A stretch of 64,000 nucleotides of DNA, from the NCBI RefSeq assembly GCF_053078305.1, contig NZ_CP166879.1; one strand, given 5' to 3'. The number at the start of each line of letters is the position of its first letter. Position 1 is the first letter of the stretch. This document shows positions 56,101 through 59,100 of this stretch, piece by piece. Position numbers: made by a program.

Positions 56101-59100
56101 TTGTGCTCCCACTGCTGCTGATGCGGTGCTGTTTCCGGTAAGACCTCCGGCCAGCCCTGCTGACACGGTTGCCAGCGTACTTATCGTCTGCTTCTGCTCT
56201 TCACTGAGGTCAGACAGCTTCACGCCAGGATACAGCATTCCGGCAATTGCTCTGGCTGCCAGTTCTCCTGTTGCGGCGCCTGCTGCACCGGCAGCAACAT
56301 TATTACCCTGCATTGCCGCTACTGCACCGCCCAGAATGGCGTGAGCAATGGCGTTTACTGCCGGATCTTTTTCTGTTGATTTCAGCAGGTGCGCCAGTTC
56401 CGGAGCCGAAGCTCCGGCCAGAGCACCCGCTAAATTACCCCCCGCCAGCCCCTGAAGCGCGGCCCGGATACCCCGCTGAATTTCACTGCCGGTACCATAC
56501 TTCGCCATTTCATCCCTGTAAGCCTGCGTGTCACGCAGTTTTGCCAGATATGCCTGCCGCTGCTCTTCCGTCGCATCCTCCGGAACAGGCCCATATTTAT
56601 CCTGCGCAGCCTTCAACGCATTCAGTTCCCCCTGCGTCCGCGCAATATCAGCCACCTGACTGCCTATGTCACTGATAAGCCCCACTGTCTACAGACGCTG
56701 CTGCTCTTTTTCCTTGTCAAAGATGGAAAAGCAAAAAAACCAGCCAACTGAACTAGCTGGTAGTTAAAGTCTATTTGATTTTGCTTAAAATATTATTGAC
56801 TATCGGTATTACAGAACTAACCAATTGCTCTTCCTCAACTGTATACAAAAGCAATTCGATCTCATTCTCCGCATTAAATAACATTGTATGGAGCCACTTT
56901 TCCTCAACAGCAACAATTTGGCTTTCCGCAGCATAAATTTCTGATTGAATACTTTGTACCGTTATTTTCCCTTCAAGAAAGTTTTTACAAGAGTGTTGTA
57001 ACCTCTCGATCACCTCAGGATAAATCCAACTCATTGCCCACTCCTGCGAAGAATAGTAACAATAATATTACTGTTATTTTCAGTGACTACACCTACGTCA
57101 CCACTCCAATAAGTCGTTCTAGTTACGCCATTAACGACACTATTTTGAGGAGTTCCTTCTTTGATAACACTTTCAACCATATTCGGCGTTATATTTCTCC
57201 CTGGGCCAACTGTGCCGGCTGGAGAACCTAAACCAGATGGCTGCATTCTATCAACAGCATGTTGTGAATACAAACGATGACCTATTTGTGCATATTGTCG
57301 CCCATCTACTGTAACCTTTCGATAATTTTGCCAAGAGTCCCAAGGTAACTTTTCAGAACTATTAGGTACGTTTTCTGATGAGGTTTTCTCATTACGTTGC
57401 TCTATTGATTCATTATTCCTGGCGTTCTCCTCATCCTGCGGCTCCCATCCCCCCGGTGTTCCAGCATCTGCGCCACCAAGCTCAGCTTTCTCCTTGTCCG
57501 TAGCGCTCGCTACGTCTTTGCCCAGATTCGGCTGTTTGTTTTCGTCTGTATTGTCGCCATTCAGCACATGCCCCGGCCCCCGGGCACCATCGCGACTCGG
57601 ATCACGTACAGCACACTGTTCCCGTGAGCCTTCACAACCACCACCGGTATCCCAGCTATTATCATTCCCGGTATCCTTACTGGCATTACCTGTAGCACCA
57701 GCTATTGCTGCTGCCGTATTAGCTGCTGTTTCAGTGGCTATCACGTTCAGCATATTGTTTTCAGCCGAGTTCCTGCCTGCCTGTGCACCCGTACCGGCAG
57801 ACGTCGTACTGTTGCCGGCAAGCCCGCCCGCAATCCCTGAGGCAATGGTGGCCAGCATGCTGATTTGCTGACGTTCCTGTTCACTCAGGCTATCGGTACG
57901 ACCACCGTAGTAGTTATCAATGATATACCGGGCTGCAAGTTCACCACTGAATGCCCCTGCAGCACCGGAAGCCGCATTGTTTCCACCCAGTTGTGCAGCA
58001 AGCGCTCCCCAGACTGCGTGAGCCATCAGGTTTGCTTCCCGGTTATCGCCGGTGGCCTGTTTTATAAGCTGTGCCACTGCCGGATTCAGACCGCCAGCCA
58101 GTACCTGCCCCGGATTCCCTGCATTCAGTCCGCCCAGCACACCCGTGATGGCCTGTACCACCATCTGCGGCGTACTGCCCGTACCGTAGCCTTTCATGAC
58201 CTCTCTGTATTCCGGGGTCTCCCGCAACTGTGCATCGCTCATGCCAGGATGCTCTTTCCTGGCTGCTTTCATCGCTTCAGTTTCGCCATACGTCATGACG
58301 ATGTTACTCATCTGACCGCTAATCTGGCTGATAACCTGCGCTTCCTGAAGACGCTTCTGCTCTTTCTCCCTGTCAAATATCGGTGCAATGCTGCCGTTGG
58401 CATTTTCCGGGTCCCGGCTGAGCCCGGCAATACCCTGCATCTGACTCTCCTTATTACGGATAATGAGATTTCCGCCGCTGATGGCGGATGACGTGGTACC
58501 TTCAGCATGTCCACTGCTGCCGGACATACCGGTAAGTGCGTTCGCCGCACCGGCTATTGCATTTGAAGCCACCATCTGGCTGGCTGACATCCCTGAGCCA
58601 CCCGATAAACTGATTCCGGTATGGCTGGCTTTATAGTCTGCCTGGTTATGGATATCCGACCAGCCCAGCGTGCCGGTACTGAGGCTGTTTTTGTCATCCG
58701 TTGCCGTGGACGCAATTACCGCACCATTGAGCTGAGTGTGATTCCCCACAGTGACATCAAACCCGTCTTTTCCGGCGTAGATACCACTCTGTTCCCGGAC
58801 AGAATCGTAATTGCTTTTGATTTTGTCCTGACTGATGCTGGCATAGCCGCTGCCGGACATTGAGCCAAACGTGAAGCTGCCACCTGCAGCCACGCTGTTT
58901 TGTCTGCTGTCGTAACGGTCACTGTCCTGAAGACTCGAAATGGTCAGGTTATTACCCACATCCGCTGTGACTTTCTCACCACTGACCTGAGCCCCCGACA
59001 GGGTGGTATCACGTCCGCTTGTGAGGGAGACATTTTTACCCGCATCCAGCGTGGTTTCGGTCCAGGTCGTGCTGCTGCCTTTCTCACTGCCTTTGGAGCC

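Follow-up and report, generated by a model that had tools for sequence, protein, structure and literature searches.

The 64,000-nucleotide stretch of contig NZ_CP166879.1 (NCBI RefSeq assembly GCF_053078305.1) analysed here, called the window below, carries the 3' part of a cdiA gene and the cdiI gene that follows it, the toxin and immunity genes of contact-dependent growth inhibition (CDI). All features that we locate in the window lie on its minus strand. According to the open reading frame (ORF) list and translation, cdiA occupies positions 57031 to 64000 and runs past the end of the window, with its TGA stop codon at 57031-57033; the 2300-aa ORF called for it starts merely at an internal ATG, and the true gene extends beyond. 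The AENN motif found in the translation (57754-57765), a variant of VENN, is where the pretoxin-VENN region ends and the polymorphic C-terminal region (CT) begins. Counted from the A of AENN, the CT is 244 aa long (240 after the motif) with its last codon at 57034-57036, and coordinates and translation confirm the length of about 240 residues given in an earlier reading made from the DNA alone (the sequence-only reading). The CT can be divided into a modular N-terminal domain at residues 5-107 (57445-57753), which runs from MLNVIATE to GTPGGW and includes Cys44 and Cys51; an acidic, Asn/Glu-rich linker at residues 108-135 (57361-57444); and a C-terminal toxin domain at residues 136-244 (57034-57360), in which the translation contains the ~100-aa domain quoted in that reading. 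The cdiI gene (56771-57034) encodes a product of 87 aa; its start codon and the stop codon of cdiA overlap as ATGA, and an AGGAG Shine-Dalgarno-like sequence (57041-57045) within the end of cdiA lies 6 nt upstream of that ATG. CdiI is small and acidic, as had been described (pI 4.65, net charge -7), and the toxin domain is basic (pI 9.59), giving the two opposite charges.

Judged from its sequence, the locus is a CdiA-CT/CdiI toxin-immunity pair, for which growth inhibition and neutralisation are predicted. A polymorphic CT follows the pretoxin-VENN region and the AENN motif, and the gene order can be seen in full in Escherichia coli O150:H6 FEX669, where the same locus is 99.9% identical and reads cdiB, cdiA (3168 aa), 87-aa gene. 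The small gene stands directly downstream of cdiA, with its ATGA overlap and Shine-Dalgarno-like sequence, and has homologues after the toxin in most of the loci inspected, as detailed below. The AENN motif is also present in E. coli orphan copies of the module.

The sequence-only reading could match neither the toxin domain nor CdiI to families that it knew, and this failure was reproduced. Pfam-A gave no match for the CT, CdiI, 66 toxin relatives or either family alignment; NCBIfam and PHROGs gave none for the toxin or CdiI; PDB sequences, searched with phmmer and hmmsearch, gave none to the toxin domain or CdiI; and a literature search with peptide strings of the toxin returned nothing. Exhaustive HMMER searching with the last 109 residues as query reveals a large family, of which 462 cluster representatives pass E<=1e-3 and 295 also pass E<=1e-10. 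Among the 183 best-scoring proteins, the longest of which has 3223 aa, the match forms the exact C-terminal end in 127 of 197 matched stretches. The proteins that host the domain include TPS/PT-VENN CdiA, Rhs and YD-shell proteins, pre-toxin TG proteins, proteins of extracellular contractile injection systems (eCIS) and fusions to phage head-morphogenesis proteins, and a scan that took one genome per species, with an alignment of 12 closer sequences, yielded 45 toxin loci in Gamma-, Beta- and Alphaproteobacteria, Planctomycetes, Actinobacteria and Firmicutes. When AFDB50 was searched with Foldseek, members of the same family came up, one of them an E. coli 'adhesin fragment' with 100% identity.

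Structure prediction, which the sequence-only reading had proposed for both proteins, could be carried out with either. The AlphaFold2 (AF2) model of the toxin domain has a predicted local distance difference test score (pLDDT) of 85 and a predicted template modelling score (pTM) of 0.76, and shows an alpha/beta protein in which helices of the N-terminal part lie against an antiparallel sheet of four strands. A BECR fold is predicted from this model with good confidence. In the 66-sequence alignment, five residues of the toxin domain are invariant, namely Lys15 (K150 in CT numbering), Tyr23 (Y158), His34 (H169), Pro41 and Thr93 (T228), and six are near-invariant, namely Arg29 (R164), Tyr31 (Y166), Arg38 (R173), Arg55 (R190), Arg81 (R216) and Glu94 (E229). 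Toxin residues 38-55 (57196-57249) are among the best-conserved stretches, with P41 invariant and G54 and R55 near-invariant. This loop is also the sole low-confidence part of the toxin model (pLDDT 57-69) and is shorter in some distant relatives; it may fold only on binding of substrate, cofactor or immunity protein.

The toxin had been called of unassigned type. This holds in that no sequence profile matches it, but the labels given by two databases and a published catalogue do place it. NCBI names orphan copies that are 98% and 99.5% identical to the CT 'DUF4258 domain-containing protein', and UniProt gives the same DUF4258 name to relatives at 42-82% identity drawn from the Foldseek AFDB50 matches. 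A precomputed match to the Pfam model of that name, PF14076, was found for none of the 120 listed of 193 hits. We call the toxin DUF4258-like and not a verified Pfam member because the database labels are not borne out by the Pfam-A model in its current form. The sequence-only reading had looked to a clear profile match with a characterised CdiA-CT family as the evidence that would count against it; none was found, but the catalogued DUF4258 label exists. Type 8 of the E. coli CdiA-CT toxins is listed by the Hayes laboratory as DUF4258 (PF14076), as 'tRNase (?)', that is a putative tRNA-cleaving ribonuclease (RNase), and with entry domains #16 or #11 (PMC11630599 Table 2), and another paper assigns DUF4258 to the BECR superfamily of RelE and ParE, its activity being given as unknown (PMC11980606). 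What is found here agrees with the type 8 entry, in that a DUF4258-labelled toxin is joined to an entry domain which, in E. coli C5, serves a toxin of the DUF769 family. We consider it probable that the toxin is a BECR-fold RNase of the catalogued type 8; given such an enzyme, tRNA would be the likelier substrate.

Module comparison by megablast, with the first 421 nt after AENN as query, separates the two halves of the CT. The whole CT is present in 33 E. coli genomes, while the match in ~175 further E. coli genomes covers the initial ~317 nt behind AENN at 92-98% identity and breaks off before the toxin domain. Two loci were inspected for the toxin partners of this stretch in genomes without a match to the present toxin domain, and both are orphan modules. 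In E. coli C5 (L052 1516-2591), ~105 residues of the entry domain are fused to a DUF769 toxin that is followed by a DUF596 gene. In E. coli NC101 (L053 6001-7085), the shared entry stretch lies in 'hypothetical' ORFs, again followed by a DUF596 gene. The NC101 locus of match H40, taken up with a view to mapping active-site residues on the main toxin of that strain, is an isolated orphan module and not the main cdiA.

An N-terminal CT module that is swapped between unrelated toxin domains, as seen in the ~175 genomes and the DUF769 fusion, is what would be expected of an entry domain. Residues 5-107 are read as such because the same module precedes different toxin domains; they form an exchangeable module, a predicted cytoplasm-entry domain that we equate with entry family #11 of the Hayes laboratory. 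In that laboratory's table, entry family 11 has no known receptor and occurs in E. coli with just three kinds of toxin: DUF769, a BECR tRNase and DUF4258 (PMC9424206 Supplementary Table 1). The domain is Gly/Asp/Asn-rich, of low complexity and acidic (pI 4.35). CT residues 77-130 are weakly similar to the N-terminal part of the UPEC536 CdiA-CT (E 0.003), the only PDB sequence match. Past this domain, identity to the DUF769-bearing CT declines just beyond GTPGGW, and homology to the toxin family sets in near CT residue 137; the linker between them (residues 108-135) is likely to be a recombination junction. The sequence-only reading had described an acidic/Gly-rich linker after AENN; most of that stretch, residues 5-107, is the modular domain shared with the ~175 genomes, and the acidic linker proper is residues 108-135.

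CdiI can be traced in a similar manner. A word-indexed search yielded five close CdiI clusters from E. coli and Photorhabdus, and the ORFs downstream of distant toxin homologues are visibly related to it, sharing the patterns WIYPE..., C..F, Q..L and AE..LE.I.FT. With phmmer from this CdiI alone, the ORF directly 3' of the toxin was recovered in 25 loci, and with iterated profiles a CdiI homologue was found 3' of the toxin in 45 of 49 loci. Each match shares the strand of the toxin and follows it immediately, save for one weak extra match in L046 that lies ~500 nt further downstream (E 8.5e-05). Three of the four loci without a CdiI match (L039, L048 and L049) end less than 400 nt from the toxin match, and truncation at the contig end is the likely reason for the missing gene in these three. 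The AF2 model of CdiI, built on a 33-sequence alignment, is a four-helix bundle with a pLDDT of 96 and a pTM of 0.86. The exact CdiI sequence occurs in ~1000 contigs and is always annotated as 'hypothetical protein'. From these comparisons, CdiI appears as a member of a conserved immunity family that follows the toxin across several phyla and has no Pfam family. It had been called unrecognised, which is right in that no database names the family, but it is not an orphan protein, having homologues at nearly all of the toxin loci.

In two Photorhabdus loci (L009 3001-3590 and L018 3001-3589), a premature stop codon lies within the toxin match and the downstream immunity ORF is intact. This pattern fits immunity genes that are kept after the decay of their toxin.

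These features can be assembled into a proposed mechanism. By analogy with other entry domains, the CT would be cleaved at or near AENN in the periplasm of the target cell, and residues 5-107 would then use an inner-membrane protein to bring the C-terminal domain into the cytoplasm; we infer this import step from the modularity seen here and from what has been published on entry domains of other toxins. A small, basic BECR-fold RNase of a DUF4258-like branch would be formed by the last ~109 residues and would stop growth most probably by cutting tRNA. Catalysis would be of the metal-independent acid-base kind and would draw on some of His169, Arg164, Arg173, Arg190, Arg216, Glu229, Thr228, Lys150 and Tyr158, a proposal that is made because of the predicted fold and the conservation of these residues. 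In the producing cell, translation of CdiI would be coupled to that of cdiA, and the protein would protect the producer by binding the toxin one to one, a protective role assigned because of its strict co-occurrence with the toxin.

The main rival of this scheme accepts an RNase and changes its target: the toxin would not be a tRNase but would either cleave mRNA on the ribosome, as RelE does, or act on rRNA; we regard this as unlikely, though it is the strongest of the alternatives. A protein with the RelE/ParE fold could also be no nuclease at all and act, for instance, by poisoning gyrase as ParE does or by binding and inhibiting a protein. We hold this to be improbable, since a His and a Lys are invariant in the family and Arg and Glu residues near-invariant, as is typical of acid-base RNases, and since ParE-type toxins are not among the CDI toxins in the catalogues (PMC11630599, PMC9424206). 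The empty searches of current Pfam-A, NCBIfam, PHROGs and PDB sequences would be in keeping with a new toxin type without relatives, or with the last ~109 residues being a translocation region, but this is the least credible of the readings and one to which we give almost no weight. Hundreds of relatives stand at the extreme C terminus of unrelated Gram-negative and Gram-positive delivery proteins, the same immunity family follows them (45/49 loci), which is a signature of toxin domains, a BECR fold is predicted and the type is already catalogued (PMC11630599). The translocation role, moreover, belongs to residues 5-107: the caution in the sequence-only reading that the domain might prove to be a translocation region rather than a toxin was apt for the N-terminal half of the CT, with its entry module, but does not apply to the last ~109 residues. 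Two further classes were considered and rejected, a pore-former or ionophore because the toxin domain is soluble, basic and alpha/beta, and the DNase families because there is no HNH, PD-(D/E)xK or Endonuclease_NS_2 match.

Several points weigh against a BECR-fold tRNase of type 8 entering through residues 5-107. The current Pfam-A DUF4258 model (PF14076) misses the CT and 66 relatives even at E<=10, and the match to the type 8 reference proteins, WP_077898481.1 and WP_096965290.1, is triangulated through labels and the entry domain; a cluster look-up did not list either accession. The catalogue's own 'tRNase' entry for type 8 bears a question mark (PMC11630599), and literature searches with DUF4258 and PF14076 returned catalogue entries and no biochemical study or assay of this toxin type. 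The grouping of the candidate catalytic residues in one pocket is presumed. The entry domain, being Gly/Asp/Asn-rich, may be largely disordered.

Much of this toxin's identity is not new: the toxin type, the DUF4258 label, the tentative tRNase activity and the entry-domain family are already in published tables, and the present copy has hundreds of counterparts in E. coli. The general picture of CDI is unchanged, and the pair is a well-defined target for experiments. We found no published description of one immunity family being kept with the toxin across phyla or of the gap in current profile libraries; the conservation of the immunity protein and this gap are small but useful additions, and the toxin domain and its immunity partner each merit a profile model of their own. 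Annotation is affected as well. Of the 33 E. coli genomes that carry the whole module, O157:H7 strains among them, 31 have the match in a VENN fragment or a DUF4258-labelled coding sequence with no cdiA annotated beneath it, as would an orphan. Toxin-antitoxin surveys have reported, for E. coli, one 'DUF4258' toxin group whose partner always lies downstream and is missing from toxin-antitoxin databases and, for Erwinia amylovora, a DUF4258 protein of 222 aa whose gene is followed by one encoding 100 aa (PMC10790755, PMC6521040). These surveyed 'DUF4258 toxin-antitoxin' systems of E. coli and Erwinia may be orphan CdiA-CT/CdiI modules. It is conceivable, but we think it rather doubtful, that the system also holds something unprecedented, be it in the substrate or activation need (a new tRNA site, or a cofactor analogous to EF-Tu or CysK), an undescribed toxin-immunity interface or a new entry receptor. 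Were this true, the four-helix immunity family, found in Proteobacteria as well as in Firmicutes and Actinobacteria, would bind its toxin through an interface that has not been described before, and entry domain #11 would use a new inner-membrane receptor.

Downstream of cdiI the window contains further orphan modules. The first of these (55183-56685) includes a 241-aa VENN-bearing fragment (55960-56685), a 225-aa Gly/Ala-rich CT ORF that overlaps this fragment out of frame (55413-56090) and, after it, a 77-aa very hydrophobic ORF (55183-55416). No NCBIfam match was found for these ORFs, and the module looks like a frameshifted CT of the membrane-ionophore type with a membrane immunity protein. 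A second orphan is of the DNase type. Its 120-aa ORF (54291-54653) matches the EC869 orphan-11 CdiA-CT DNase (PDB 4G6U and 4ZQU; E ~1e-53 to 1e-56), and the 125-aa ORF that follows (53756-54133) is presumably its CdiI. A 102-aa ORF just upstream (54698-55006) is maybe the disrupted N-terminal part of that CT. Directly after the immunity gene comes a 93-aa hydrophobic ORF (53456-53737), also without an NCBIfam match, which may be a further membrane immunity protein. In FEX669, the region downstream of cdiI (L001 13077-14012) holds an annotated hemagglutinin pseudogene fragment and then a partial helix-turn-helix gene.

Among known systems, the CdiA-CT(NC101) tRNase (PDB 5I4Q) is a BECR-fold toxin that cuts the tRNA acceptor stem and depends on EF-Tu; the present pair has no sequence homology to that toxin or to its CdiI. 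The tRNase domains of colicin E5 and colicin D and the toxins of the RelE/ParE superfamily likewise have the BECR fold but no detectable sequence similarity to the domain described here, whose conserved set is also different (invariant His169, Thr228, Lys150 and Tyr158, with near-invariant Glu229). Those toxins are delivered as colicins or encoded in type II toxin-antitoxin operons, whereas here delivery is of the CdiA/Rhs type and the immunity protein is unrelated. In the case of the entry domain, the closest comparison is with the PtsG-dependent EC3006 and FtsH-dependent UPEC536 CdiA-CTs, whose entry domains occupy the same spot right after VENN/AENN, are likewise exchanged between toxins and likewise have a cysteine pair; unlike them, the present domain is of low complexity, acidic and not obviously helical. 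The nearest known system as a whole is E. coli type 8. Although the DUF4258 label rests on an older or CDD-type match, unlike the current Pfam-A result, the toxin bears the same label as type 8 and stands on an entry domain shared with DUF769, as in entry family #11.
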